Origin: an uncultured Spirochaetota bacterium
GTDB taxonomy: Bacteria; Spirochaetota; Spirochaetia; SZUA-6; Fen-1364
Reading direction: 5' to 3'
Assembly (NCBI GenBank): GCA_963745235.1
Contig: CAVUXE010000037.1
Span: forward strand, 32,001-96,000
DNA: 64,000 nt
Below, piece after piece: positions 1-16,554 of this stretch. The notes beneath the pieces were generated by a model. That model searched no databases. It saw only the letters and a list, made by a program, of their open reading frames with translations, and was not told the origin of the DNA. A program made the translations under genes and the position numbers. Numbering within the stretch: position 1 is the first letter of the stretch; each line of letters starts with the position of its first letter.

Positions 1-30
1 CGGCAAATCACGGCAAATCTCGGCAAATCC
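1..30 (+). repeat. 3 x 10-bp tandem repeat CGGCAAATC(A/T/C)
   Basis: cggcaaatca cggcaaatct cggcaaatcc read directly at the window start; may extend upstream. Confidence 0.8.
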
Positions 31-37
31 GTCAAAG

Positions 38-66
38 TTGACAGCCCCTGAGGCAACGGCTATCCT
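38..66 (+). promoter_or_regulatory. sigma70-type promoter of tRNA-Leu
   Basis: TTGACA (38-43), 17-bp spacer, TATCCT (61-66), 10 bp before the tRNA. Confidence 0.75.
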
Positions 67-75
67 GCCTGCGAA

Positions 76-160
76 GCCGGCGTGATGAAATGGCAGACAT
101 GCCAGACTCAAAATCTGGTGGGTGGCAACGCCCGTGTCGGTTCAAGTCCGACCGCCGGCA
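76..160 (+). tRNA. tRNA-Leu(CAA)
   Basis: Acceptor stem GCCGGCG/CGCCGGC, anticodon arm CCAGA-CTCAAAA-TCTGG, long variable arm, T-loop GGTTCAAGTCC; no encoded CCA. Confidence 0.97.
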
Positions 161-377
161 GAGAGTTCGTGCAGATGCAAGGAATTGGCGCACCACCCTT
201 CCATGAACGGGCGGAAGGATGGCCCACTCGCCCCTATCCATACCAGTTTCCCTACCAGTTGAGCGGCCTTGTTCCTTCCAAACTGCGAGCCTCGGAAGGG
301 ACTATGCTCGTGACGGCGAGAAGGGTTCGGCATTGCGTCCTCCCGTGTAGGAAGCCGCCAATCCGGCTCGATTCAGC

Positions 378-1118
378 TCACGCAACCCTCGTGCTGCTTC
401 GCGGGGCGTCGTGGGACTTCTCGATCCTTCGCGCAACGAGGAGCGTGGCCTCGTAGAGGATCACAAGCGGAAACATGACGGTCAGGGGCGCGACGATGGG
501 ATCGCTCACGGGCGTGATGATCTCGGCAAAGGCAAAGAGTATGAAGTACGCGACCCGGCGTCTCTTTTTCAGGACAAAGACGCTCAGTACGTGCAGCCGA
601 ACAAGGATGATGAGAAGGCACGGGAGCTGAAAAGAGATGCCGCAGGAGAGAAGGAAAAACGTCACGAAGGAGATGTAGTCATCGGCGGAGGGCATGTACT
701 CGATCCTCGGAGGGAAAAGCTGCACGAGGACCTTGATCATGCTCCAGAGGAGGTAGTAGCCGAAACAGGTCCCTGCCGCGAACAGGACCACCGAAGCCAC
801 GAGCAACGGCATGACGAGACTTCTCTCGGAGCGCCGCAGCCCGGGGGACACGAAACCGATGAGCTGATGCGCCCAGAGCGGGGTGGTGAGGATGATCCCC
901 CCGTACAAGGCGAGGCGCAGCTTTATCATCAACCCGTCGAGAAGCCTGAAAGCTCTCAGGTGCAGACCGCCCGAGGGAAGAAGCAGGACGGTCAGGGCGG
1001 AATCGGCGAAAAAGTATGCAACAACGGTTCCCGCAAACACGGCGACGGCGGCAACGAGGAGGCGCCGCCGCAATTCCGACAGGTGATCGGAAAAACTCAT
1101 GAAAGCGTTGCCCGTCAT
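378..1118 (-). CDS. tatC: Twin-arginine translocase subunit TatC
   Basis: MSFSDHLSELRRRL, FVSPGLRRSE, FQLP and ITPVSDP motifs; six hydrophobic segments. Confidence 0.93.
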   Translation of the reverse strand: MTGNAFMSFSDHLSELRRRLLVAAVAVFAGTVVAYFFADSALTVLLLPSGGLHLRAFRLLDGLMIKLRLALYGGIILTTPLWAHQLIGFVSPGLRRSERSLVMPLLVASVVLFAAGTCFGYYLLWSMIKVLVQLFPPRIEYMPSADDYISFVTFFLLSCGISFQLPCLLIILVRLHVLSVFVLKKRRRVAYFILFAFAEIITPVSDPIVAPLTVMFPLVILYEATLLVARRIEKSHDAPRSSTRVA

Positions 1119-1136
1119 GCAATCCTCACAGCGGGT

Positions 1137-1469
1137 CTATGAGAGCCTGGCTCCACACTGGCCGCAGAATCGGGACTCCTGCGGGTTCAAAGCGTTGCAC
1201 ACGCCGCATGACCGCCCTGCGGCAGAAACGTTGTGCGGCGCGGGAGCCTGCGCTTGCCGAGACGCGGCGTCATCTTGAGAGCGTCTCTCCTGCACGCCGC
1301 TGCCTCCGTTCTCATCCCTGAACTGCGCACTCATTTCCTGGGCGCCTTTGCGGAACTCCCTGACCGACTTCCCAAGCCAGTGACCAAGTTGGGGAAGTCG
1401 CTTTGGTCCGAATATCACGAGCGCGACGATTCCGATGAAAAGCAGATGAATGGGCTGAAGTCCGAACAT
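1137..1469 (-). CDS. tatA: TatA/E subunit with C-terminal zinc ribbon
   Basis: ALVIFGPKRLPQLGHWLGKSVREFRKG; tail CGVC...FCGQCG. Confidence 0.9.
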   Translation of the reverse strand: MFGLQPIHLLFIGIVALVIFGPKRLPQLGHWLGKSVREFRKGAQEMSAQFRDENGGSGVQERRSQDDAASRQAQAPAPHNVSAAGRSCGVCNALNPQESRFCGQCGARLS

Positions 1470-1491
1470 GGTTCCTCCTATTCGTAACGGG

Positions 1492-1797
1492 CTACTCTCG
1501 TATGCGATAGACAGCGCACGAATGGAAATCGATCTCCCACTTGAAGCCAGGAATCCTCTCCCACAGGTATTTTCGGCTCATCGTGTCCCACCACTGCTGG
1601 AAGCGGCCAGTGTTATCGGCCATGTCACGTACCAATCTCTCGTACAGCGCACTCGCCTGCAGGTCGTTCTCGGGAAGACCGACCAGTGACCGGAAGAGCT
1701 CCGCGAGGCCGTTCTTGCGCTCGAAGAGCATGCGGATCTCGTCCCGTTCCACGCCCTCAACCGCGCCCACGCTCACGCGGTCGTTTTCAGTTGCCAT
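1492..1797 (-). CDS. CXXX repeat peptide modification system protein
   Basis: VG.V...ERDEI..LFERKNGL.EL and QQWW..MS.KY.W...WEIDF..C motifs of the CXXX-associated family (TIGR04116 as I recall it); operon context. Confidence 0.8.
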   Translation of the reverse strand: MATENDRVSVGAVEGVERDEIRMLFERKNGLAELFRSLVGLPENDLQASALYERLVRDMADNTGRFQQWWDTMSRKYLWERIPGFKWEIDFHSCAVYRIRE

Positions 1798-2890
1798 TGC
1801 GGTCCTCCTTCTTCAACTGCGCGAGGATCTCTTCCTGCACCGCGAGGATCCGCGCCAGCGTCTGCTCAATGCGCCCGTTTGTGCCCCCCTGCTGAGGCGA
1901 CCCGCGATCCTGGCTCCTGCGAGCGCCGATTTTCGACTGCGCCTGCATGAGCGCATCGAACGGATCGAGGTAGGCGAGCCGGGGGATGGGTTCCGTCCGT
2001 GCAAGGAAAGTCACGTCGCCGAGCAGATCGCGGAGAATGCTGGATGCATTCCTCTCGTGGTGCGAGGCGATGCACTGCTGGTGCGATGGCGCGTTGATCT
2101 CGAGGGTCGTGCGCTTGTTCAGGTAAAGACAGCGCTTGCAATGGTACGCATCGCAGGCTGAACAGATGGCGGCGTGGGCGATGTCCAGGAGTTCGGCGTT
2201 CGGCACGCGGAGGCCCTGGCGAAGATTTCCCACGGGCTGGTTCGGCTCATCGTGCAGGAATCCGGGACAGACATACAGGTTTCCTTCAGGCCCGACGGTC
2301 ACGTGGTCGATCCCCGCCTGGCAGTTGCGCATCGAGGTGAGAAAGATCCTGTCGGTCAGGAAGCCGAGCTCGATGTCGCGCCGCCGCCTCAGCGTCTCGG
2401 CCACGCAATGTGCGAGGTCCTGGAGAGACCGCCAATAGAGCTCGAGCGCCGCATCGCCTGGCGTCTCCAGGTCCAGGAGACAAAGGTTTATCCGCCGGCA
2501 CGTTCCAATCAGCGGGAGCAATACCGCCGGCAGCTCGGCGATACGGCCGATGGGGAAGCGCACGATGATATTGGCATCCCGCACACGGGCTGGCAACGCA
2601 GTCTTTTCGAGGTCTTCGGGCCCGACGATCACCGTCGATGCTGGATGCGCATCCGCCGCGGAAAGCGGGACGATGTCGGCATGGCTGACGCTCTGCATGA
2701 CCGGCGCAAAGGACGCAGGAGGTTCCGTCTCTCCGTATTGGAAGTTCACCACCAGCCCCCGCGCCTGGGCGAACGCAACGGCCTCCCGAAGGGTTTCCAA
2801 CGGGATGGGACGCGGCGCGGGTCTTTCAGGCTTCGCGTAGTAGCAGAAGGAAGGCGCAGACTCGTCGATCGGCACGAGGAGGAACTTCAT
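1787..2890 (-). CDS. CXXX repeat peptide maturase (SPASM-containing, lacks CxxxCxxC)
   Basis: N-terminal SFCYY, LTDRI...MRNC.AG...ITVGPEG..Y.CP.F, then CSACDAYHCKRC and PS.QQC; TIGR04119-like as I recall it. Confidence 0.82.
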   Translation of the reverse strand: MKFLLVPIDESAPSFCYYAKPERPAPRPIPLETLREAVAFAQARGLVVNFQYGETEPPASFAPVMQSVSHADIVPLSAADAHPASTVIVGPEDLEKTALPARVRDANIIVRFPIGRIAELPAVLLPLIGTCRRINLCLLDLETPGDAALELYWRSLQDLAHCVAETLRRRRDIELGFLTDRIFLTSMRNCQAGIDHVTVGPEGNLYVCPGFLHDEPNQPVGNLRQGLRVPNAELLDIAHAAICSACDAYHCKRCLYLNKRTTLEINAPSHQQCIASHHERNASSILRDLLGDVTFLARTEPIPRLAYLDPFDALMQAQSKIGARRSQDRGSPQQGGTNGRIEQTLARILAVQEEILAQLKKEDRNGN

Positions 2891-4105
2891 GGCGATGCCC
2901 CCTCGGGGGCTGCGGCAGCGGGCAGTTCTTCACCTACCGGCGGAAGCTTGGCGAACATCTTCCAGTAGTAGCGGTTGGCGCGCACCCGCGCCTTGTGCAT
3001 CGCGCAGATGAAGACGGCCCTCTGATAGATCGTCTCGGTGTCCGCCGCATCGTAGTTCAAGCCCTGGCACCAGGCACATCCGCTGGCAACCTCGCAGGCG
3101 AGGCATTTCTGCGGGCTCTGGCGCATCCGGTCGAGCGTGAGGAACGGACGAAGCCTGTTCTGATCGATCCCCTCGAAGCAGCTTCCCACGGTCCGCGCCG
3201 GGTGTCGCGCGAGCGAGTAGGGTGCGAACCTGATGCAGGGGTAGAAGAGGCCGGCGTGGTCGACGGCGAGCATCTTCCCTGCCCCGCACCAGTTCTGGGT
3301 GTCCTGCTCCGCATCGAGGGGGAGGCCGATCGAATCCGAGAAGAAGGTCGCGGCCACCGTGTTGAAGAGCCCTTTCGCGAGGACGTGGTCTGCAAGCGAT
3401 TTGAGCTGCTCCTCGAGAACCGCATCATCGCCTTCGACCCAGACGTTCTCGAAAACAGTATTGATGAACACGTTCGGTATCCCAAGGTCCCAGAGGTGCA
3501 CGACGCTCTCGAACACGAACGGCAGGTCCTCGTGACCCACCGTGACCTTCGTGCCTGCGCCCGGAAACTGCTCCAGCCACCGGGGGACGTTGCGCACGAC
3601 GTCGCCATAAGATCCCCTCCCATCGGGATACCGGCGCTGCAGGTCGTGCTTGCGCTGCGTGCCATCCAGGCTTAGCCCGATGCTGAGGTGGGCCCTGTTC
3701 TTTGCGATGAAATCCTGGACGCGCGGGTGGTCGTAGAGGATGCCGTTGGTCGAAAGGCTGAACCGGTAGCTGTCGAACCAGGGGTGGTTCTCCTCGTACA
3801 TACGCCGCTTGATGTAGTCGCACACCGCATCGATCAGCTCGATCTCGAGCAGGGGTTCGCCGCCAATGAAAGCCCATTCGACGCTGGACTCGGGAAAGAA
3901 GCGTTGGTTGGCGAGCACGTAGTCCACCGTGCGCCGCGCGATGTCGAAGCTCATGGGGTGCGCGCGGTTCTTGCCCGGACAGGTAACAGTAGCAGCACCG
4001 CAGCTGGCAGTCCTCCGTTACGATGAAGGAGATATTCTTTGCACTGCCTTCGCCCCAGCTCCGTGGCTTCTGCCCGAAAGTGTAATGGCTACTCGGAATA
4101 GACAT
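2887..4105 (-). CDS. Radical SAM/SPASM peptide maturase, CXXX-repeat target family (one apparent frameshift near 3975)
   Basis: KNISFIVTEDCQLRCCYCYL joins MSFDIARRTVDYVL if one G of GGG is removed; FIGGEPL, NWCGAGKML, YPCIRF, CLACEVASGCAWC; TIGR04115-like. Confidence 0.85.
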
Positions 4106-4120
4106 GAGAAGGGGAACCTC

Positions 4121-4336
4121 TCAGTGTGCGCAGACCATGGTGCACGTCGTTGAGCAACTCCCCGTGCAGGACGAGCTGCAGCCACCGGTGCAGGTCCCCT
4201 CGCAGTTGTCCTTGCAGGCGCTGGTGCACGTCCCGCCGCATCCTCCTGGCGGCGAGCAACTCGAGAGGCTGAGACCGAGCAGGGCGAACGAGGTGAGGAC
4301 GGTTGCAGCGCTTCTCAAGAAATGACGGCGGTCCAT
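4121..4336 (-). CDS. CXXX-repeat RiPP precursor (71 aa) with Tat and lipoprotein signal
   Basis: MDRRHFLRSAATVLTSFALLGLSLSSC followed by ten Cys at exact 4-residue spacing; in frame with the upstream rSAM ORF. Confidence 0.82.
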   Translation of the reverse strand: MDRRHFLRSAATVLTSFALLGLSLSSCSPPGGCGGTCTSACKDNCEGTCTGGCSSSCTGSCSTTCTMVCAH

Positions 4337-5458
4337 TTGATCGCTCAGGGCGGGAAGGCCGCCGTCTCCGGTCGTGACGAGCTCGTCATCGACGACGCCT
4401 CTCGCCGCTGGGCTGAGCCTCGACGGGGAATGGCGTCTCTCGGCCGCATCCTGATACTCGTGCCAGGCGCAGCAGTAGGGATCAGGGGCGTTGATGTTGC
4501 CTGTAAAATAGAGGGCGCGCGCCCGGCACCCTCCGCCCGACACCGCGAGGTGCGGGCAGTCGGCACAGCGGGTGTTCAGGGCGAAGACCTTCTTCCTTGC
4601 CAGGTGCTGCGCCCAGAGACTTGCAAGCGGTTGTGCGCGAATGCTGCCTTCAAGGAAATCGTCTCCCAGGAAAGCGCACGGGCTCATGCGGCCGTCGGCC
4701 CTGATGCCGAGCTTGGTATCGGGACAACCGAACCGCTGCGTTTCATTTCCCGCGCCGCATTGGAGCGAAAGGTCGGGAGATCGGCCTATGGCGGCGATCA
4801 TCTGCCAGGCTTCGCCCGCCATCGATGGCGGGATGAGAAGTGAGGAGTTCTCGAGCGCCCTGCCCGCGGGCTTGACGAGCCCGACGACGAGATTGCGTAC
4901 TCCAATGCTTTTCAGGAACTCGGGCAGGCGCGAGATCTCCTGCATGTTCTCGCGGTGAACGGAATACTGAACGACGAGGTCTCGGATATCCGCCGACTGC
5001 AGAAGCCTGATTCCTCGCAGGGCCGCAGCGAAGGCGCCCTGGCTTCGAAGGGAATCATGGGTCTCCGGGGTCACACCATCAAGGCTGACTTTCACCCGCA
5101 CCTGCTCCTGCGCCAGGCAAGCAGCTGTCTCGGCCGTGACGAGGGATCCCGTGGTCAGGAGCGTTACCGCGAGGCTTTTCGCTCGCGCGCGGGAGACGAA
5201 ATGCCGCAACCCGCTTCGCATCATCGGCTCGCCGCCTGAGAAGGTCACAGCTGGCACGCCCATGTCGCTCACCTGATCAATGAGCGAGAGCACTTCCCCG
5301 TCGGAGAGCTCCTGTTCCATGGGCTTCCCCGCGGAGCAATAGCAGTGCCTGCATTGATTGGAACACCTGTTCGTCAGGTCGATGTAGACGCGTGATGGAA
5401 GAAGCGGTGAGAAGGTCTTTCTTTCAGAGCCCATTCCGACATAGAGACTTCTTGCCAT
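4121..5458 (-). CDS. Radical SAM/SPASM enzyme (PqqE/NirJ-like), reading through into the precursor
   Basis: CSNQCRHC, FSGGEP, KVSLDG, SPASM region C...DGRMSPC...CADC...GGGCRARA...DPYC. Confidence 0.85.
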   Translation of the reverse strand: MARSLYVGMGSERKTFSPLLPSRVYIDLTNRCSNQCRHCYCSAGKPMEQELSDGEVLSLIDQVSDMGVPAVTFSGGEPMMRSGLRHFVSRARAKSLAVTLLTTGSLVTAETAACLAQEQVRVKVSLDGVTPETHDSLRSQGAFAAALRGIRLLQSADIRDLVVQYSVHRENMQEISRLPEFLKSIGVRNLVVGLVKPAGRALENSSLLIPPSMAGEAWQMIAAIGRSPDLSLQCGAGNETQRFGCPDTKLGIRADGRMSPCAFLGDDFLEGSIRAQPLASLWAQHLARKKVFALNTRCADCPHLAVSGGGCRARALYFTGNINAPDPYCCAWHEYQDAAERRHSPSRLSPAARGVVDDELVTTGDGGLPALSDQMDRRHFLRSAATVLTSFALLGLSLSSCSPPGGCGGTCTSACKDNCEGTCTGGCSSSCTGSCSTTCTMVCAH

Positions 5459-5728
5459 TGGAACCCCCCTCGCACACTTTTTTTGGTCTTCAGATCCTGG
5501 CGCGGCTGAGAAAGGTTTTCACATGATAGCTCTACAGGCCGATGGATGCAAGAAGAATATCTCAAGAGCTCAAAAAACTGCAAAATGAAACTCGGTATAC
5601 AAAGCCGCCATACCAGAATCCATACCTATTGGATGAGCCACCGTAGCTGGGGTAGCGGAAATAGCTTCGAGAGCCTTGAAATAGCTCGAAAACGGGCCTC
5701 ATAGCGCGTGTAGGAAGGATGGACGCGC

Positions 5729-5784
5729 CTCAAAATCTGGTGGGTGGCAACGCCCGTGTCGGTTCAAGTCCGACCGCCGGCAGA
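5729..5784 (+). repeat. att-site copy of the tRNA-Leu 3' half
   Basis: Exact 56-bp duplicate of 107-162; the 5' half of the tRNA is absent. Confidence 0.95.
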
Positions 5785-5819
5785 CAATTCCATCCTTGAT
5801 CGGTTTTGCACTCTGGGCG

Positions 5820-6000
5820 CGATTGCGGGGCACGCTGCTGCGAGCCCACGAATGCACCGTATCCGCTGCCTGCCGCGCCTCCTTGGCGTCTGATAGGGTC
5901 AACTCCAGTTCGTTATCGGGGCAGCGGACTTCAACGGCGTACGGATTCAAGATCTGGTCGGCCGCTCGCACGGCAGAAGGGACTCCTTCCGCCCGGTCCG
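5820..6000 (-). pseudogene. HEPN-domain fragment
   Basis: LNPYAVEVRCPD...DAKEARQAADTV resembles the C-terminal half of HEPN proteins (L.PYAV..RYP). Confidence 0.45.
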
Positions 6001-6179
6001 CGCTGACTTCTTCCATGAGCGCCAGGTTGGCCGCTCTTTCCATTCCCGGCGTGGCTGCGCAAGGCCGAAAACGACCTTCTTTCTCAGCCGGCATGAACTT
6101 CTTTGCCCTGAGAAATGACCGCCATCTCTGCCAGCAACCGCACGCCGACGCGCCGGTAGGCGCGAAGCGTGCCCTGGAC

Positions 6180-6810
6180 CGATGATAGTAGCGCACGAGG
6201 CTCGAAAGGCTCTGGCGGAACGCTATTGGCTTTCCCCCCTCCGCCTCTGCGTTGATCTGCGGAATGGTCTCAGCACCCTCCAGCAGTGGCCAATAGTGTT
6301 GCCGCCACTTCTCGCTGACTTCCAGGAGCGGGACACTGACCGACCCGATGGGCTCCCAGCGAGCGGAGGCCCACGAAGTCATGGCGATATCGCAAAGCGC
6401 GCGGATCAAGGCCAGCTTGTACGTAGCCACCTTCCGATCAGCGTTGATGATGCTTTCCACCCGATCGATGGCGCGCGTGCTCACTCCGGAGGACTGGAAG
6501 TACAGTGTTGCCCAGAGAAAGCCCCTCCCAGCGGAGTCAGCGGATTTCCATTCATTCTCAAGCTCAAACCCAAGCCGTTCGAAAAGGAGCCGAACCTGGG
6601 CAACGGACCGGATGATCATGAGCCTGCCCGCCTCATCACGCTGACCGCCGGGCCTGATGTCACCCCGCTCGACTGGCATAGAGATCAGGAGCTTCCCGCC
6701 CTTCTTGAGGCGCTGGCGAAGCTCGAACGCGACGTCGAAGAGCTCTCCGTCCGGGATGTGCATGATAACGCAGAGAGGAGAACACCGTCATACTCGTGTC
6801 GGATATCCGA
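6180..6810 (-). pseudogene. Class I SAM methyltransferase / HNH-associated protein fragment
   Basis: DGVLLSA..MHIP...LKKGGKLLIS, then KVATYKLALIRALCDIA...YWPL; both ends missing. Confidence 0.6.
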
Positions 6811-6844
6811 GGGCAGGCCTCCAGGCAGGAAGCCATCAGAGAGC

Positions 6845-7774
6845 TTGCCCAGATGGAACTTCATACTTACCGGCAGCTCCGCGCGTCAACTCAGGCGAGG
6901 CAGCGCCAATCTCCTTCCTGGCCGAAGCATCGCACATACCCTGACTCCCGTCATGCAGGCAGAGTGCAGGCCGAGTACTCTGCTGCCGGCCGCCCTGCCG
7001 GCTGAGCCGAGATTTCCCCAGAGGAGCCTGGAAGACTACTTGCTGTTCGGAAGCCTCCCTGGGCTGTATTCAGAAGGACGGGACGCCTGGGCTGAGACGC
7101 TGGCAACGTGGGCCGATCTTTACATCGAGAATGAGGTCCGGCAGGAAAACATCGTCAGGGACATGGGAGCTTTCAGCCGGTTTATCGAGCTTGCGGCGCT
7201 TGAGTCCGGCCGTATCGTCAACTACACCAAGATGGCCTCCGCCGTGGGCGTGGCCGTGAACACGCTCCGCAATTTCTTCCAAGTCCTTGAGGACACCTTC
7301 CTCGGAATACGGGTACCGCCATTCACCGAAACACGCCGCCGTGTCGCCCTGGCACCCCGGTTCGTTCTCTTCGACATAGGAGTTCGCCATGCTCTTGCCG
7401 GTCTTCGCATCTCAGAGGACCTCATTCGCATTGGGGCGGAGGAGCTCTTCGAACAATGGGTCATCTCCGAGCTCTGCCACCGCGCCACTGCCCTGGGGCC
7501 TGGATACTCCGTCAGCTCCTGGCGCACCTCTGGCGGGGCAGAGGTGGACGCCATCCTGCGAACTCCCGAGGAGGTGATTCCCGTGGAGATCAAATGGACC
7601 GACAGCCCGCGGCCATCGGACGCGCGGCACGTGGAGACCTTTCTCGATCTCCACTCGGGGGCGAATCGAGGCTTTGTGGTGTGCCGCACTCCCTCACGCC
7701 AGGCGCTTACCGACCGGGTCACTGCGCTGCCGTGGAATGAGTTCTATAGCTACAGCTTGTCGGGTAATTGCTAG
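6845..7774 (+). pseudogene. AAA+ ATPase with DUF4143, N-terminally truncated; last codons hit by the IS
   Basis: FILTGSSARQLRRG.ANLLPGR, FDIGV, WRTSGGAEVD, VEIKW; no Walker A present. Confidence 0.75.
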
Positions 7775-8158
7775 CCTGCTGCACCCTGCTGGGCATGGCG
7801 ACGCCTGACCGGCACCTTGCGCGTTGGTGGCGGCAACTCTTGCAGCTGACGCTCGGTTGCCTCCAGCGAAATGCGCTCCATTTCGGCGACGATGCGATCA
7901 AGTTCCTTGCCGGCAGCGATCCACCCTTCTAGCAACTTGGCTTGTTGAGCTGACAGATTAACCGTGACGGTCCTGCCGTCGAGTTTGCGGGTCCACTGGT
8001 AATACGGACCGTGCAAACGGGGGGGTGAGGCTTTGCAGGCGCAGACGGACTTGCCGCAGGTCATCATGCGCTTGAGCAGGGTGCCGCGGCGGAAGAAGCC
8101 GATGTGGCTCAGGGCGAGTTGAAGCTGCCCGGTAGTCTGATGGAAGGTCGGTTTTCAT
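7771..8158 (-). CDS. DUF6788-family protein carried by the IS (frameshift near 8115)
   Basis: RGTL...CGK..C.C...P..HGPYYQWTRK..G.TVTV. Confidence 0.7.
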
Positions 8159-8169
8159 GGCGATGTATA

Positions 8170-8205
8170 TTGACAGAGATTAGTCCCCAGTTATACTACT
8201 GGGGA
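8170..8205 (+). promoter_or_regulatory. Transposase promoter with palindrome around the -10 box
   Basis: TTGACA (8170-8175), 16 bp, TATACT (8192-8197) flanked by TCCCCAGT / ACTGGGGA. Confidence 0.65.
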
Positions 8206-8342
8206 AGTGTCTCCCGTCAATATCCTCCCGGTTCGACTTTGCCTCCCGATCCTCTCTTCGGCCCTGTGTCTGCTCCTTGTGCTCGGCGGCTTCAGTACAC
8301 GCCCTTGCGTTATCCCAACCACTTCAGCGGAGGTTCCCCCCT

Positions 8343-9713
8343 ATGCCGCGTCAGCCCGATCTATTGCCCAGATCCAAGAGTCCAACCATCCCTGTGGCCG
8401 ACAACCATCGCCTCGTCCAGATCGCCGACACCCTCGATTGGGAGGAGCTGCAACAGCGCGCCCAACAGATCCGTCTGGCAAAGTTGAAGAACGCTGCAGG
8501 CCAGCCGCCGCATTTGCGCGCCACCCTCGGCGCTATGCTGTTCATGGCTACACGCAAGCTCACCTATCGGGAGGCGGAAGACCTCATCCAATACTACGCC
8601 CCGGCGCGTTACCTGTGCGGGCTGACCGAGACGAGCTGGACGCCGGACTTCACCACGATCCAAGACTTCACCGAATTGATGGGAGAGCAGGGGATCAATC
8701 TCATCAATCAGTACGTGGTGCACCTGGCGGTGAAGCAAAAGCTGGCAGATCCCAGGACCCTGGTGGCCGACACCACAGCGCAGGAAGCGGCAATCCCCTA
8801 TCCCAACGAGATGGGACTTATGTCCGCCTTCCTGCGCTCGGCGGCTGCCGCAGGGCGGAAGGTTGGCCGAGGGCTGAAGGGGTTTTTGCAACAGACGGCG
8901 AGTCAATTCCAGGCGGCCGGGCAGAAAGCTCGAGAGTACCGCCTGTTTGCCAAGACCAAGGAGAGCAAGGATCGGGTGATGACTCAGATGCTCACCATCG
9001 TCGAGAAGCTCAACGCGCATTTGGGCAAGGCGCTGGGCGAAGCTGCCGCACAGAGAACAAAGCTACGCAAGTACGCCATCGTGGCCAAGAGCAAGCTGGT
9101 GCAATTGCACGAAACGATGAGCAAATTGCTGCCGCAGATCCGCTACTGGATTCGCTCAGGCTATGTGGCCAGCGGCAAGATCATCAGCCTGCATATCCCG
9201 CAACTCTACAGTATCGTGCGCGGCAAAGTAGGCAAATCGGTGGAGTTCGGACTGAGCTGGGGCATTACGCGTCTGGCCGGTGGGTACCTGCTGGCCACGC
9301 TGGCCAAGGATCGCCGCGAGTTGGTGGACACGAAGTTTGCAGTGCGAGCAGTCAAGGACCACCTCGCGCTCTTTGGCAAAGCGCCGCTGGCATATGCCTA
9401 CGATCGTGGTGGATACAGCGCGCAGAACCTCTCCGCCTTGAAGAAGTTGGGGGTCAAGGAGGTGGGACTGGCCCCCCGTGGACGTACACAGTGGTCGGTA
9501 AGCAGACCGGTGCGCGACCGGCTGGTCAGAGAGCGGGCTTTGGTAGAGGCGGGAATCGGCTCCATCAAAAGTCCGCGCTATGGGTTCAACCGCCCGGCAG
9601 CCCGCTCGGTGACTATGATGGGCGCCTGCGGTCAGCGTGCAGTGCTGGGGTTCAACGCCAACAAACTGGTCCGAGAGCTTGCGCGCCGCAAGACAATGGT
9701 GCTGAGCGGTTGA
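8343..9713 (+). CDS. DDE transposase
   Basis: PDFTTIQDF, VADTTAQEA, RGKVGKSVEFG, YDRGG, RALVEAGIG; lies between the TIRs. Confidence 0.9.
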   Translation: MPRQPDLLPRSKSPTIPVADNHRLVQIADTLDWEELQQRAQQIRLAKLKNAAGQPPHLRATLGAMLFMATRKLTYREAEDLIQYYAPARYLCGLTETSWTPDFTTIQDFTELMGEQGINLINQYVVHLAVKQKLADPRTLVADTTAQEAAIPYPNEMGLMSAFLRSAAAAGRKVGRGLKGFLQQTASQFQAAGQKAREYRLFAKTKESKDRVMTQMLTIVEKLNAHLGKALGEAAAQRTKLRKYAIVAKSKLVQLHETMSKLLPQIRYWIRSGYVASGKIISLHIPQLYSIVRGKVGKSVEFGLSWGITRLAGGYLLATLAKDRRELVDTKFAVRAVKDHLALFGKAPLAYAYDRGGYSAQNLSALKKLGVKEVGLAPRGRTQWSVSRPVRDRLVRERALVEAGIGSIKSPRYGFNRPAARSVTMMGACGQRAVLGFNANKLVRELARRKTMVLSG

Positions 9714-9968
9714 AAATCGATCTAAGAATCGATCATCAGACACAAAGACAAGTAGCAGCAAAGGGAAACGATTCCTACCGCACCGACAGCGCCTCTGAGT
9801 TGACGATGAAGGGTCACAGCGGACCGCCTACCGAGCAAGCATCGTGATAGCCGACGACGTACTGCATGCCACGCGAATCGCCGCCAAGAATTACCCGACA
9901 AGCTGTAGCTACGCAGCACCGCGTTGATCCTCGTCTGGCACCCGGCGCGGGGAGCGCGATCGAATCCT

Positions 9969-11824: not shown

Positions 11825-12018
11825 ATGTGCCTCCGTCCAGGACAAGAAGGTAGTGAAATCCGTCCGCAAGACCATAGCCGGACCTCCGCTCCTTGTAGCC
11901 AGAACCAGAGGTTAGTGGAATTTCAGGCCATGCGGCCGGGTCGGAGGCATGCGCGGGCACGGGTTTCGCCATGAAATTCCGTCTTGCATCACTCGTTTTT
12001 CATGATATGCTTGCCTGT

Positions 12019-13180
12019 GATGATCGAGCGCACCGATCTTCTTGCCGCCTTGAAGAAGGCTCTCTCCCGCAGCCGTGTCGTCGTCCTTACGGGACCACGC
12101 CAGTGCGGAAAAACTACGATAGCCCGCCAGTTTCTGGACGCGACATCAGCCAACTATTTCGATCTGGAGGATCCGGCCGATCTGGAGAGGCTGACTGAGC
12201 CAATGACGGCGCTCGGGCCCCTCGAAGGGCTGATTGTGATAGACGAGGTGCAACGCCGGCCGGATCTCTTCCCGATCCTGCGCGTGTTGGCCGATCGACG
12301 TGATGCCACGGCCCGGTTCCTGATCCTTGGAAGCGCTTCCGGTGATCTCCTGCGTCAAACCTCGGAAAGCCTCGCGGGGAGGACGGAGCGAGTGACCATT
12401 GGAGGCTTCTCATTGAGAGAGTTGGGTGCGAACGCTGAAGAGAAGTTGTGGCTTCGGGGAGGCTTGCCGCTCTCCTACCTCGCCCGAAGCGAAATTGACA
12501 GCGGAGCCTGGCGAAAGAGTTTGATCCAATCACTTCTTGAGCGCGATTTCCCTCAGTGGGGCGTCCGCGTGCCGGCCGTGGCTCTTCTTCGTTTCTGGAC
12601 CATGCTTGCGCACTATCATGGGCAGACATGGAACGCCGCCGAGCCGGCCCGCGCCATGGGAGTCAGCGAATCCACCGCCCGCCGCTATCTCGACCTTCTC
12701 ACGGATGCTTTGATGATACGGCAATTGCATCCCTATCACGCAAATGTCGGCAAGCGCCAGGTGAAGGCCCCAAAGATCTACGTTCGAGACACGGGACTCC
12801 TGCACCAACTCCTTGGCATCGGCACACACAAGGAGCTGCTCAATCATCCCAAGGTCGGGGCGTCATGGGAAGGGTTTGTCATCGAGCAGCTTCTGATGGC
12901 GGAGCCCCATGATGAAGCATTCTTCTGGTCCACCCATCAAGGCGCTGAGATCGATTTGATCCTGCGCCGAGGTGGCAAGCTTCTGGGGGTCGAGTGCAAA
13001 CGCACCGATACACCGCGAACGACGCAGTCTGTCAGAATCGCGATGGAGGACATTGGGCTGTCACGAGTCGCGATTCTCTATCCGGGAACCAAGCGTTTTA
13101 CGATCGCCGAAAAGGTGGAGGCCGTTCCCATACATACTCTCGCGAAGAGCGAATCGATCTTCGAGAAAGGCAAGGGATAA
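12019..13180 (+). CDS. AAA+ ATPase with DUF4143
   Basis: GPRQCGKTT, IDEVQ, ILGSAS, KIYVRDTGLLH, GASWEG, AEIDL. Confidence 0.92.
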
Positions 13181-13198
13181 TCGGATGCCTTATGGAGC

Positions 13199-13425
13199 TC
13201 AAGAAGGCAGCGCACGAACGGCATTGATGAGCGGCCGCTGTTCATTCCCGCCTCCTCCTCGGAGCTTCTCCGCGTCAGGGAAGTTGTCGAAGGTGTCTCC
13301 TGCAAATAGCAGGATATCCGCTTTCTTCCCATTTGCGATTCCGACAATCTCCGACAGGACTGACAGCGAGTACTCCTTTTCCGGGACCGACAAATGCAGG
13401 TCAGCACAATGAAGGATTCGCGTCA
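13199..13425 (-). pseudogene. SbcD/Mre11-like metallophosphoesterase N-terminal fragment
   Basis: RILHCADLHL...LFAGDTFD, then ends. Confidence 0.65.
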
Positions 13426-13542
13426 CCTTCTCGGTGTTCCGGCAATTCGCGGCTTCAACGCCTGCCGCCCTACGCCTTCGCCCCGCTTCGTTGCATTGGA
13501 CTTGCACGCGCCTTTGTGTAACGTCATGTGGAGAGGCGGCAT

Positions 13543-13704
13543 GTGGCCACAACTCTTGCGATCGATGATGAGTTGATACTCGAAGCGCAGAGGATCGGCG
13601 GGCACCGGACAAAGAAATCCGCTGTGACCGAAGCTCTCAAGGTATATATCCAGCGGCTCTTTCGATGGTTGGATTTCTCGGCCGCAATAACGGACCGCAG
13701 GTGA
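13543..13704 (+). pseudogene. vapB: VapB-type antitoxin (53 aa, below the ORF-track cutoff; 3' end probably replaced)
   Basis: GTG start after GGAGAGG; MATTLAIDDELILEAQRIGGHRTKKSAVTEALKVYIQR. Confidence 0.7.
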
Positions 13705-14720
13705 GCGAAAGCCTTCTCCCGCCATTCTGACTTGGCTTTGAACCGATCCGTGTGGGCTTTGAGCTGCTTGTACTGTTCCAGCCGGGGATCTTCCACAAAG
13801 GCCGTCCGCATGAGGGCCATCGCCTCGTCGTGGCGGTCCAGGGCGTGGTATTCCTGCGCAAGGAGTTCTCGAAGCCTTCACGTCCGTGTGGTGTGGAAAA
13901 GCGCCCACGCCTTTTTCCGCCCACCGGACAGCCAGGTCGTCCCTGCCCGCCTTCTTGTATTCTTCCGCGATCTGAAGAAAGTGATATTCAGTCGATTGGT
14001 CGCGGGACAACACCTCCACGAGCTTCGAAAGGTCGCCGCTCTGCCGTGCCAGCGTCTCCATGATACGGGTGATCCTGAAGCGCGCATGGGACTCGCTGGC
14101 ATCGCGCGTTCCGGGACCCACGGGCTTCACCTTCGCCCATTCGGTCTCGGCGAGGACGCGGTACGCGCCCATCTCCTCGGGCCCCAACACATCGGCATAA
14201 GTTGAAGCAGCGTCGTAGAAGACGTCCCACTCTGAATGAAGCTTTCACGCGAAAAGCCTCTGCGCAAGTGCCTTCCCGCCCGGCCGGGCGCTTCTGCAGG
14301 CGCGGTGGTGGATGTCCCGCAGCCTGTCCAGGATGGGCCGGATGCAGCCGTCGGAATCGTCGATCGAATCCAGCTGGGCTTCGACCGCCTGAGCGCGTAT
14401 TCCGCAAGTTCGATGACCGCCTCGAGCTTGCCGGCTTTCCGCAGGCCATCGATGGCATCCACCACATCTTCGATACTCCGCGCGTAGGAAGCCGCCTCGC
14501 GCCAGTTGACGAACCCGTTGTGCCTGACCGCGTCGTCGATGACGGTGCGCAGCGCCTCCCCCTCGACAACCTGTCCCCTGGACCGCGGGGTCTCAAGGGG
14601 GAGTCGTCTCACCAGCCGGTGGTCACCCAACGTCGGCGCCAGGAGGATGTCGACCAGGTCTGACTTCTCGTGCGCCAGGAGGTGTCCGCGAAGGTCCTCT
14701 GCATGAATCTCTGGCATCAG
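13650..14720 (-). pseudogene. SWIM zinc-finger-associated helical protein (DUF6880-like) remnant with several frameshifts
   Basis: FVNWREAASYA, VIELAEYAL, LGPEEMGAYRVLAETEW, ITRIMETLA spread over several frames. Confidence 0.6.
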
Positions 14721-15000
14721 GTCGGACGATGCCCGATCCTCTTCTTGGTCACCGGGCGGTCGAAGGCGAGGTTGCCGAGGTGCGCATGCGCATCCAGGCA
14801 GCGCAAGGAAAGGCCCTCCTCCTGATGGGAGGCGATGCTCAAGGAGGGCATCCAGGTCGGCTATGGGCTGACTGGCCTCCACCCGGTCCTCCGACCAGCC
14901 CGCGACTACCCTGTCCCCTGTCCAGGTGGCAGAGCGTTACGAGAGATTGCCCGGGTCAAGCGAGCGGACATTTCTGCTTGTTTGATGGCAGGACCGGCTC

Positions 15001-15321
15001 TTGAGCGGCGCAGCGCGCCTGCTGGTTCCATCGCTCCATTACTGGGAGTTCGCCAACGCGCTGCGCACCCTGGCTGCCCGGAAGGCTATCGAAGAGGGAA
15101 CCGTTCAGGAGTTGCTGGACCTTCACTTGGACGCCCCGCTCGAGGTCGCGGAGCCGGACCGTCGCGAGGTATTTCGGATCGCGCTGGAGTATGGCGCAAC
15201 GGCCTACGATGCTGTGTTCATCTGCCTCGCGCTGGCCAACGATGTTCACCTGGTGACAGCGGAACGAAGCAGTACCCGATGGGTGAGGAAGCTCGGGGAC
15301 CGCGTGCAGCAGGTGCGGTAG
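15001..15321 (+). pseudogene. vapC: VapC/PIN toxin lacking its N-terminus
   Basis: VPSL...EFANAL...TAYDAVFICLA...LVTAE; first PIN Asp strand missing. Confidence 0.65.
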
Positions 15322-15678
15322 CGGCTCGACCGACAATGCGCCGGCTCCGATGCGCAGGACCCTTATCCAACAAGTCATTGAACGATAACGTTATCGTTCA
15401 AATGAGCGTCATGAAAGTAGTCGTTCAGAACGGACTCGAGCCTCGGCTCACGTGGCACTTCCGCAAAGGTCTTTCAATCGGCTTGGACGTGAAGCGCTGG
15501 TCAGGTGCAAAAGAGGTGGGACGGCGAGGTAGTTCATATGGCCCCTGGAATCGACCCAATGGTTGACCGCCTCTCACTCTACTTGTCGCTCAGGGGCTCC
15601 ACCGACGAGCGCGTGGAGGCCGGGCTGGGCGAGTTCCTTGCGGGAATGAAATGGTAAGCTGCTGAAGGCGATTGTAGA

Positions 15679-16554
15679 GTGACGACCTCAAGGGTGAGCG
15701 CCGCGAGCCATCTTGACTGCCAGGAGATTCGCTATCGCCTCCAGAACCACGCCGTGTTCCGACTTTTGCGCAAGGAGCGGGTAGCCTTCGTTCTCGCTTT
15801 TCTCATCTCCGCGTTCAAGACTCGCCAGCGCTGTGACATCCCGGAATCGGAGCTGGTCACCGTGCTCTCCTCCTACATCGACATGTTGCGGCTCACTGTT
15901 GGCGAAGGAGAGCTCACTCTGGACGCCCGAGCATCTCTGGAAGACTGGGCGAACGACGGGATCCTTCGCAGGTTCCATACCCCCCGTGCCGACGAGCCAC
16001 GCTACGACCTCACCCCGGAAGCGGAGCGTGCCATCGAGTGGATGCAGGGCCTCACCGCCCGGCAATTCGTGGGTGCGGAGTCGCGGCTCCTGAAGATATT
16101 CGACATTCTGAGGGAGGTTGTGTTCGGCGCTTCGCCCGACAAGGAGGAACGCATCAAGGAGCTCGAACGGTGGCGCGACCAGCTCGACCTGGAGATCGAA
16201 CGCCTGCGCTCAGGCTCGGGAGCCGTCATGGACTCCACGAGGATCAAGGAGCGGTACTTCGAGCTTGAGGATACGGCGCGGCGCCTGTTGGCCGACTTCA
16301 AGCAGATCGAGCAGAACTTCCGCGAGCTTGATCGCTCCGTGCGCGCCGAGCGACTGGCGGCGGAGCGTCCACGTGGCAGCGTCCTGAAAGACATCTTCGA
16401 GCTTCGTGACGCCATCATGGCAAGCGACCAGGGCAGGAGCTTCGCCGGGTTCTGGGCGTTCTTGATGTCCGCGGAGAAACAGGAAGAGCTTGAGGGTCTG
16501 GTGGAGCGCCTGCGGATTCCAGACTTACTCGGGGAGAGACATGAGAGGCAATAG
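15679..16554 (+). pseudogene. jetA: Wadjet JetA (DUF3375), C-terminally truncated
   Basis: H...RLLR, YDLTPEAERAIEW, FVGAESRL, ARRLLADFKQIEQNFRELDR, SDQGRSF.GFW.FLMS; no jetBCD follow. Confidence 0.8.

Follow-up and report, generated by a model that had tools for sequence, protein, structure and literature searches.

Family-wide twin-arginine leaders and recurrent tatAC linkage in the CXXX-repeat peptide maturation cassette

An operon that encodes a CXXX-repeat peptide maturation cassette, followed directly by tatA and tatC, lies on the minus strand at positions 378-5458 of a 64,000-nt stretch of DNA from an uncultured Spirochaetota bacterium (assembly GCA_963745235.1, contig CAVUXE010000037.1); this whole stretch is referred to as the window. 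Peptides of the RiPP type (peptides that are made on ribosomes and then modified post-translationally) normally exit the cell via ATP-binding cassette (ABC) transporters with leader proteases. In the family to which this operon is assigned, the leader of the cysteine-rich precursor carries a twin-arginine (RR) motif family-wide, genes of the twin-arginine translocation (Tat) system are linked to the cassette repeatedly, and the type of leader and the type of exporter are swapped together. On balance, we consider it probable that the cassette belongs to the CXXX-repeat peptide maturation family and has a Tat-targeted Cys-repeat substrate that would be modified and then exported; as judged from the comparison of related loci, the export part of this reading appears well supported.

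The CXXX-repeat family is known from bioinformatic definition only, that is, through the models TIGR04115, TIGR04119 and TIGR04116 for its proteins and TIGR04114 and TIGR04117 for its targets. The operon is assigned to it because three of its proteins exceed the curated cut-offs. With the NCBIfam system it shares these three proteins, the gene order of 80 other loci and a Cys period of 4; it differs in having an extra radical S-adenosylmethionine (rSAM)/SPASM enzyme fused to the precursor, a tatAC pair of the type of the host genus, and an island setting at a tRNA gene. In the open-access PubMed Central (PMC) and bioRxiv literature, we found no paper on a product of the CXXX family or on a link of Tat to this family or to rSAM-modified RiPPs, and we came across no description there of repeated recruitment of tatAC or of a swap between Tat and ABC export. 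Within that scope, the cassette is a known family, and the Tat link, the recurrent tatAC recruitment and the Tat/ABC swap would be the new part.

The twin-arginine leader

A scan of species-representative genomes with an alignment of 15 TIGR04119 proteins confirmed at least 538 relatives. The best 80 loci were studied; their sources include Bacteroidota, Ignavibacteriota, Spirochaetota, Bacillota, Aminicenantes and delta-proteobacterial metagenome-assembled genomes (MAGs), among others. A CXXX open reading frame (ORF) was counted when it lay on the plus strand and had at least four CXXX units. The pattern RR-x-[F..]-[L..] stands ahead of the repeats in 87/98 such ORFs. Among the 70 loci with a CXXX ORF, 63 have at least one RR-bearing precursor. 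Loci with and without an adjacent tatC both carry the motif (32/33 and 25/31, respectively).

For a closer view of the leader, 64 precursors were aligned; these had been preselected for the motif, which fixes only RR and the residue at +3 by construction. Phe occupies +2 in 64/64, S/T precedes the motif at -1 in 40, and K/R is found at +4 in 52, giving the leader consensus QSRRxFFKxAAKxALPxxG. An earlier note on this DNA, made from its letters alone, had matched the start of the window precursor to the twin-arginine consensus. The match holds as far as the motif is concerned (D-R-R-H-F-L-R, with a mostly hydrophobic stretch of 18 residues and then LSSC behind it), whereas the Pfam TAT_signal profile stays below its cut-off. 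The motif is N-terminal only if translation begins at the ATG at 4336.

Linkage and origin of tatAC

With profiles made from the window proteins, tatA-tatC was found directly behind TIGR04116 and on the same strand in 38/80 loci. No tatC was found in 34/80 despite at least 1.5 kb of room, one further locus has a tatC 6 kb off on the opposite strand, and seven end too early to judge; the pair is adjacent in 38, and tatC lacking in 34, of the 73 assessable loci. A same-order genome with the cassette proved to be the same contig as locus L024 and was counted once. This neighbourhood survey bears out the association of tatAC with CXXX maturases that the earlier note had put forward. Two Bacteroidales loci (L041 and L056) have tatA behind TIGR04116, and no tatC was found in the several kb that follow.

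The origin of the linked genes was traced in a maximum-likelihood tree of 62 TatC proteins, in which the label 'in cluster' changes at least four times; starred branches force all four changes. The window TatC groups with five housekeeping TatCs of its own genus (support 100/99; best identity 63-64%), 34 cluster TatCs (32 from Bacteroidota and two from Bacillota-labelled MAGs) form a clade of their own (94/82) beside non-cluster Bacteroidales TatCs, and the cluster TatCs labelled Spirochaetota make up a further clade. The genome-resolved relatives nearest to the window in the TIGR04119 tree (L012, L013 and L031) are without adjacent tatAC. By these trees, tatAC appears to be drawn repeatedly to the cassette from local stock, and a functional tie between the two is therefore hard to avoid. 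The earlier note had spoken of a dedicated minimal TatAC; the link of cassette and Tat stands on comparative grounds, but a special minimal type does not, as the window TatC is 64% identical to a TatC of the same genus.

In the tree of TatC as well as in that of TIGR04119, the Lachnospiraceae- and Clostridia-labelled MAG loci L063 and L077 fall within the Bacteroidota clade, which may reflect transfer of the entire cassette together with tatAC, or mis-binning of the contigs.

At the level of genomes, tatC is present in 25/25 cassette genomes checked. The cluster tatC is the sole tatC found in 9/15 genomes and is accompanied by one or two more in the other six, where 'none found' is not proof of absence because the genomes are MAGs; all ten genomes without a cluster tatC have tatC elsewhere. 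Among other genomes of the window's genus, tatC was found in 7/20. A second tatC is present in the genome of the window itself, on contig C79 (8382-9301; L002), where it is split into two frames and its match ends at profile position 184 of 215. If that split is real, the genome has no intact tatC other than that of the operon. A separate TatB is absent from the cassette, and the genome holds only two TatA-family genes.

The window TatA ends in a C-terminal zinc ribbon (C-x2-C ... C-x2-C), with Zn_Ribbon_1 at 23.9 bits against a cut-off of 25. The ribbon occurs genus-wide: in the operon's copy at 1137-1469, in the second copy of the host (L002:1090-1458) and in five genomes of the same genus (L115, L116, L130, L131 and L132). 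To our knowledge, no role has been described for such a ribbon on TatA.

Coupled change of leader and exporter

An ABC exporter gene (ABC_membrane + ABC_tran) stands directly behind TIGR04119 in 7/80 loci. All seven are without TIGR04116 and without tatC, and six of them have a leader that lacks RR, MA[RK][RK]TVPSFGF; no precursor was found in the seventh. TIGR04116 itself is present in 70/80 loci, none of which has the ABC gene, and of the ten loci that miss it, seven are those of ABC type and three are truncated contigs. The type of leader and TIGR04116 thus change in step with the export route, from which we infer that the RR leader functions as a Tat signal and that TIGR04116 is tied to it. 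When ORFs around the 80 cassettes were clustered, no family recurred widely apart from the precursor, the three maturation proteins and the two Tat proteins TatC and TatA.

TIGR04116 may be a factor that binds the leader (signal peptide) or holds the precursor back. The CX3CX2C motif of TIGR04115 is preceded by about 32 residues, whereas the related maturase CteB has a peptide-binding domain of about 100 residues there, according to alignment offsets and its published description (PMC10288494); as TIGR04115 lacks a built-in leader-binding domain, a separate leader-binding protein is plausible. The likeness proposed for TIGR04116 to TorD, DmsD, NapD and the leader-recognition domains of RiPP enzymes is functional only, as a small cytoplasmic protein associated with a single type of leader. 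Profile and PDB searches gave no sequence match to Tat chaperones or RiPP leader-recognition domains; the PDB sequence search returned nothing below E 0.3, and a protein atlas search returned only the family itself.

Gene content of the operon

The seven coding regions claimed in the earlier note are present in the claimed order, all on the minus strand, by ORF coordinates and profile scores (Table 1). As it had also claimed, the genes abut or overlap: neighbours are separated by 15-22 nt or overlap by 4-11 nt (4 nt between the genes for TIGR04115 and TIGR04119, 11 nt between those for TIGR04119 and TIGR04116), and tatA and tatC are 18 nt apart. Profile hidden Markov models place TIGR04115, TIGR04119, TIGR04116, TatA and TatC above their NCBIfam cut-offs, whereas the first rSAM/SPASM protein and the precursor fall below. 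The earlier note's statement that ABC exporter and protease are missing is correct for the DNA between two 62-nt repeats that bracket the operon.

Table 1. Features of the operon and its borders in the window
Feature	Position	Strand	Description
rSAM/SPASM (first)	5458-4337	minus	best NCBIfam match AhbD, 141 bits vs cut-off 500; below the cut-off of every family
Fused ORF, 445 aa	4121..5458	minus	rSAM/SPASM residues 1-335, linker 336-374 (39 aa), precursor 375-445
Precursor part, 71 aa from internal ATG	4121..4336	minus	MDRRHFLRS, hydrophobic stretch, lipobox-like LSSC, SPPGG, 10 Cys spaced by 3
TIGR04115 radical SAM/SPASM maturase	2887..4105	minus	518.5 bits vs 350 for 3954-2887; split by a 1-nt frameshift
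TIGR04119 'CXXX repeat peptide maturase', 367 aa	1787..2890	minus	195.3 bits vs cut-off 150
TIGR04116 small accessory protein, 101 aa	1492..1797	minus	78.8 bits vs cut-off 50
tatA, 110 aa	1137..1469	minus	TIGR01411 55.7 bits vs 53.9; Pfam TatA_B_E
tatC, 246 aa	378..1118	minus	TIGR00945 153.5 bits vs cut-off 132.7; Pfam TatC
Presumed promoter region, 270 nt	5459..5728		lower GC (~0.5), upstream of the operon
tRNA-Leu, anticodon CAA	76..160	plus	ARAGORN; Rfam tRNA 56.2 bits; 3' half forms left repeat
Left 62-nt direct repeat	107..168		anticodon loop to 3' end of tRNA-Leu + 8 nt
Right 62-nt direct repeat	5729..5790		copy of the 3' half of tRNA-Leu

In the Cys-repeat part, MDRRHFLRSAATVLTSFALLGLSLSSC-SPPGG precedes 10 Cys with three-residue spacing; these were counted by eye, and on TIGR04114 the precursor part reaches 12.1 bits (cut-off 20). 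According to profile searches, the genome (85.7% complete) holds one precursor and one TIGR04115 gene only. All ORFs of the operon have a coding-type G+C content at third codon positions (GC3) of 0.68-0.83. A scan for sigma-70 promoters found no site in the presumed promoter region; the promoter and terminator scan was at chance level, with one promoter-like site against 1.0 expected, located upstream of the tRNA. An Rfam scan returned the tRNA only, with no riboswitch ahead of the operon.

The in-frame joining of enzyme and precursor

The precursor was described in the earlier note as a gene of its own. In the window, it lies instead in frame behind the first rSAM/SPASM enzyme with no stop codon between, and ORF 5458-4121 thus encodes 445 aa comprising the enzyme, a 39-aa linker and the precursor. 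Among 126 relatives of this protein, the two closest, the metagenome proteins P0015 (447 aa) and P0016 (463 aa), with 54-55% identity, are also fused, and the remaining ones are unfused proteins of about 345 aa. P0015 and P0016 have the same layout: a SPASM domain, a diverged linker, [LF]P.LS.QMDRR.FLRS...LGLSLS[GS]CS, and CXXX repeats. The lipobox pattern [LVI][ASTVI][GAS]C is matched by L-S-S-C in the window and by L-S-G-C in both of them. P0016 and the TIGR04119 homologue P0002 (56% identical) each come from a 9017-bp contig, probably one shared contig.

Searched against 1.84 billion cluster representatives, linker plus precursor yielded 52 relatives, only one of which is fused; about 48 stand alone, with lengths of 70-136 aa and an alignment that starts at MDRR. 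A search with residues 336-445 only gave 608 candidates, none at E <= 0.001. A metagenome scan with the rSAM alignment found 21 loci, every one an unfused relative, and P0015 and P0016 were not among them. The extra rSAM/SPASM gene lies beside the cassette in 0/80 surveyed loci and, in its fused form, is otherwise known only from the two metagenome proteins. Judged by these counts, the fused enzyme-precursor with its mid-protein signal appears to be rare (1/52 relatives) and is the most unusual local feature.

Whether the fusion is true or only apparent stands at roughly even odds. There is a nearly even chance that it is only apparent, with the precursor translated alone from the ATG at 4336 and the open frame between being functionless. 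About 48/52 relatives are free-standing, several of them beginning 2-5 residues before RR; the Met ahead of DRR is kept in all three fused proteins; the precursor frame is unharmed in contigs in which the rSAM part is broken; and Tat signals are normally required at the N-terminus. What speaks for a joined product is that the linker of about 40 codons, although diverged, is open in 3/3 known members, that its composition is coding-like (GC at codon positions 1/2/3 of 0.77/0.56/0.74), and that the protein sequence just ahead of the Met, [LF]P.LS.Q, is conserved. Moreover, no in-frame ATG, GTG or TTG is found in the 30 codons upstream of the ATG at 4336, and no clear Shine-Dalgarno sequence precedes it.

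A specific form of the true fusion, in which the enzyme would modify its own Cys tail in cis, the RR segment would enter TatAC as a loop and the chain would be cleaved at the lipobox, seems to us unlikely. If it were true, the lipid-anchored cross-linked peptide would be freed, the spent enzyme would stay in the cytoplasm, and the maturase would be single-use. It would then be the first rSAM maturase joined to its own substrate, and also a naturally occurring example of Tat transport in which the signal lies 374 residues inside a soluble protein. Borosins of the OphMA type also combine a modifying enzyme and a C-terminal substrate tail in one polypeptide, but they are methyltransferases without an export signal, whereas the window protein is an rSAM/SPASM enzyme with a Tat/lipoprotein-type signal between enzyme and tail.

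Two side observations concern the relatives of this protein. The precursor relative P0170 (240 aa) has about 105 residues before RR, which may be a second case of an internal Tat-type signal or a mis-called start. The unfused relatives of the first rSAM on metagenome contigs (L092, L095/L096, L098, L100/L101 and L104) stand in a different conserved gene set: a protein of 130-310 aa with a C-terminal Cys motif (...PPVSSCSV, ...PPTCGCSL, ...ETSCGV, ...GGCQ or ...QPAGC) abuts the enzyme, a methyltransferase-like gene comes next, and a Crp-like regulator is present in several loci. This set resembles another orphan peptide- or protein-modifying system.

Genomic setting and state of this copy

The earlier note took no account of the setting of the operon, which is bracketed by a tRNA-Leu gene and a repeat of its 3' half. 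The two repeat copies are 97% identical, lie 5622 nt apart and enclose only the seven operon genes; a 24-mer of the repeat occurs twice in the 64 kb, where no occurrence is expected. TIGR04119 is found in 0/20 genomes of the same genus and in 0/4 other genomes of the same family. Because of the tRNA-half repeat and this patchy distribution, the operon is read as a 5.6-kb, integrase-less and mobile-looking island at tRNA-Leu. No integrase lies between the repeats or among the ORFs scanned rightward to about 22.7 kb. In a search for an empty site, no relative joined the tRNA to the right flank of the window; relatives share the tRNA region only. Loose contig ends at the tRNA were considered and set aside, as neither flank matches them and tRNA-Leu genes of other organisms are their probable source.

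The right flank (5699-9847 and 11984-16554) resembles accessory DNA, and one ORF runs through the tRNA fragment. Its genes include a DUF4143 ATPase of which only the AAA end is present, a DUF6788 protein and a DUF772-type transposase; a second DUF4143/AAA_14 gene is intact, and a DUF3375 gene is truncated.

In the window, the gene for TIGR04115, the core rSAM enzyme, is spread over two frames. Its N-terminal piece with the CX3CX2C motif, which scores 27.2 bits, is in the frame of ORF 4105-3425, and ORF 3954-2887 covers the other 330 profile positions. An additional G in tccGGGcaag, near 3974-3977, causes the break; without it, the protein reads ...CYLSGKNRAHPMSF..., in agreement with ...CYVHGKNNLNKMDV... 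of an intact homologue from another genome. Contigs of four public runs from three peat/soil studies, one of which may be the window's own sample, were compared with positions 1-6500. The extra base at about 3977 is absent from both covering contigs (X1 and X3, each at a depth below 3). The contigs carry changes of their own in the first rSAM gene, namely a 1-nt deletion at 4715 in 4/4 runs and an 11-nt tandem duplication behind 4855 in 3/3 covering runs, which together split it into three frames when the copy is translated. Around both sites, the window frame keeps residues that are invariant among homologues of the first rSAM. In each haplotype seen, one rSAM is disrupted: the common environmental allele has the first rSAM broken and the core whole, and the window has the reverse. 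The idea that the frameshifts prove the assembly to be poor was rejected: unlike the contigs, the window retains the conserved frame at 4715 and 4855.

This copy could be a decaying relic on an integrase-less island remnant, with one or the other rSAM inactivated; we regard this as a substantial possibility, somewhat short of an even one. It would fit the frameshift in the core rSAM, the first rSAM broken in contigs from three studies and the lack of an integrase between the repeats, as well as the damaged genes nearby (the DUF4143 ATPase with its AAA-domain end only, the insertion sequence transposase and the truncated DUF3375) and the host's other tatC, which is likewise split into two frames. 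On the other hand, the extra G stands in a run of G and is missing from 2/2 contigs, and may therefore be an assembly error. The genes tatC, tatA, TIGR04116 and TIGR04119 show no indels where they are covered in the four runs, and coding-type GC3 is kept by all ORFs.

Chemistry and comparison with known systems

TIGR04115 is a complete rSAM/SPASM enzyme. Its next-best family is PapB (NF047865; 162.4 bits, E 1.6e-47, cut-off 340), and the SCIFF maturase and QhpD-type enzymes are also near it by NCBIfam scores. TIGR04119 has a SPASM-type Cys set with seven invariant Cys (C190, C208, C243, C246, C251, C254 and C273) but no CX3CX2C radical SAM motif, which implies that it would perform no radical chemistry on its own. 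The best solved relative is the SCIFF maturase CteB (PDB 5WGG/5WHY), which is matched by TIGR04115 at E 1.2e-14 and, in its SPASM region 250-405, by the TIGR04119 profile at E 6.7e-4.

On the substrate side, the repeat unit over 821 units is C-[S/T/K]-[G]-[S/G/T]; acidic residues are rare, and 43% of the x2 positions are Gly. According to the part of the PapB/freyrasin study covered, PapB links Cys to Asp/Glu within Cys-X3-Asp/Glu motifs (PMC9413430). The two systems share several short Cys motifs in a row and, on the same partial text, thioether formation is the PapB chemistry with which the cassette is compared; they differ in that the cassette has the next Cys at +4 where PapA has Asp/Glu, and no Tat signal is described for PapA in that part (PMC9413430). 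The window system may work like PapB, but it is not a member of the PapB-type ranthipeptides.

A second parallel is found in Methanococcus voltae, in which the SPASM rSAM enzyme CrpC installs ranthionine links on CrpA, a Cys-rich repeat protein encoded next to it; as far as the covered part of that text goes, this is an orphan Cys-repeat system shown to make thioethers (PMC13692751). CrpC (TIGR04463) is distant, with the core rSAM reaching 35.5 bits against a cut-off of 525, and CrpA differs in having 17-residue repeats with C-X-X-Q/D motifs; the words 'export' and 'secret' are absent from the text (PMC13692751). QhpD (TIGR03906), which acts on QhpC in the maturation of quinohemoprotein amine dehydrogenase, is another relative of the core rSAM, at 89.9 bits against a cut-off of 453. 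The small subunit QhpC receives its thioether links in the cytoplasm and then goes to the periplasm; this export depends on a leader protease and a dedicated ABC transporter rather than on Tat.

By analogy to these enzymes, our best guess is that the Cys repeats would be modified by thioether cross-links of the PapB/CteB kind, forming a 'thioether ladder'. The cassette would then work as follows. The precursor would be made in the cytoplasm, where its twin-arginine signal peptide would double as the leader for the maturation proteins, with TIGR04116 as a likely leader-specific accessory. The Fe-S enzymes would modify the Cys-x-x-x repeats, most likely by thioether cross-links. A peptide modified in this way could presumably not be threaded unfolded and would hence cross the membrane via TatAC. 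In the window copy, the lipobox-like LSSC would anchor the product by a lipid outside the membrane, and the island cassette seems to have picked up a tatAC pair related to that of the host genus.

Several observations weigh against this reading. The precursor part scores 46-49.9 bits on TIGR04117 (cut-off 50), and Pfam TAT_signal (cut-off 22.7) gives 13.1 bits for the window, 15.3 for P0015 and 19.2 for P0016; moreover, the Tat signal lies 374 residues into the sole ORF that contains it. The 34 loci with room for a tatC that was not found belong here too, as does the occurrence of tatC in 11/14 control genomes: most bacteria have Tat, and its presence in every cassette genome is therefore a weak test. 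The repeat unit is without the Asp/Glu acceptor of PapB, so that any cross-links may be of another type. TIGR04116 could be a regulator instead, as it has weak matches of the helix-turn-helix type (HTH_38 in 32/69 members, best E 9.4e-4; Csa3 at E ~0.4). Finally, the operon in the window may be inactive, as its core rSAM gene is frameshifted, and in public contigs the first rSAM is broken instead.

The lack of PapB-type acceptors and the Gly at the x2 positions would also suit a peptide without cross-links, one that binds a metal or other cofactor (Fe-S, Cu or similar) or is redox-active and is exported folded around it via Tat, after the two Fe-S proteins have loaded or shaped it in the cytoplasm. 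Tat is the usual export route for cofactor-bearing proteins, and TIGR04119 has only a SPASM-type Cys set. We nevertheless hold this explanation to be improbable: TIGR04115 is a complete rSAM/SPASM enzyme, and its nearest characterised relatives (PapB, CteB and QhpD-type enzymes) are all thioether makers. We also know of no Fe-S ligand pattern in the form of CxxxC at a strict period of 4. That the RR region is a RiPP leader only, with a peptide that is not a Tat substrate and a tatAC adjacent by coincidence, is a very remote prospect and already disfavoured: leaders can indeed be conserved purely for recognition by enzymes, and TAT_signal stays below its cut-off, but the adjacency of tatAC has at least four independent origins, the cluster tatC is often the sole one found (9/15 genomes), leader and exporter type swap together, and the motif is close to S/T-R-R-x-F-L-K.

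Implications

The preferred reading, cytoplasmic maturation followed by export through Tat, means that a large orphan family (at least 538 species-level genomes, many of them gut Bacteroidales) uses a twin-arginine export signal, and that the pairing of maturase and Tat is a family-wide rule rather than a peculiarity of one genome. In many small genomes, the tatAC pair of the cluster is the only Tat system found. Cytoplasmic modification followed by folded export offers a testable rationale for the family, and with it a likely role for the orphan proteins TIGR04116 and TIGR04119. The fused form in the window adds a further question for Tat biology. Clusters of the Tat type and of the ABC type, set side by side, provide a natural experiment on a leader peptide that doubles as a signal peptide.

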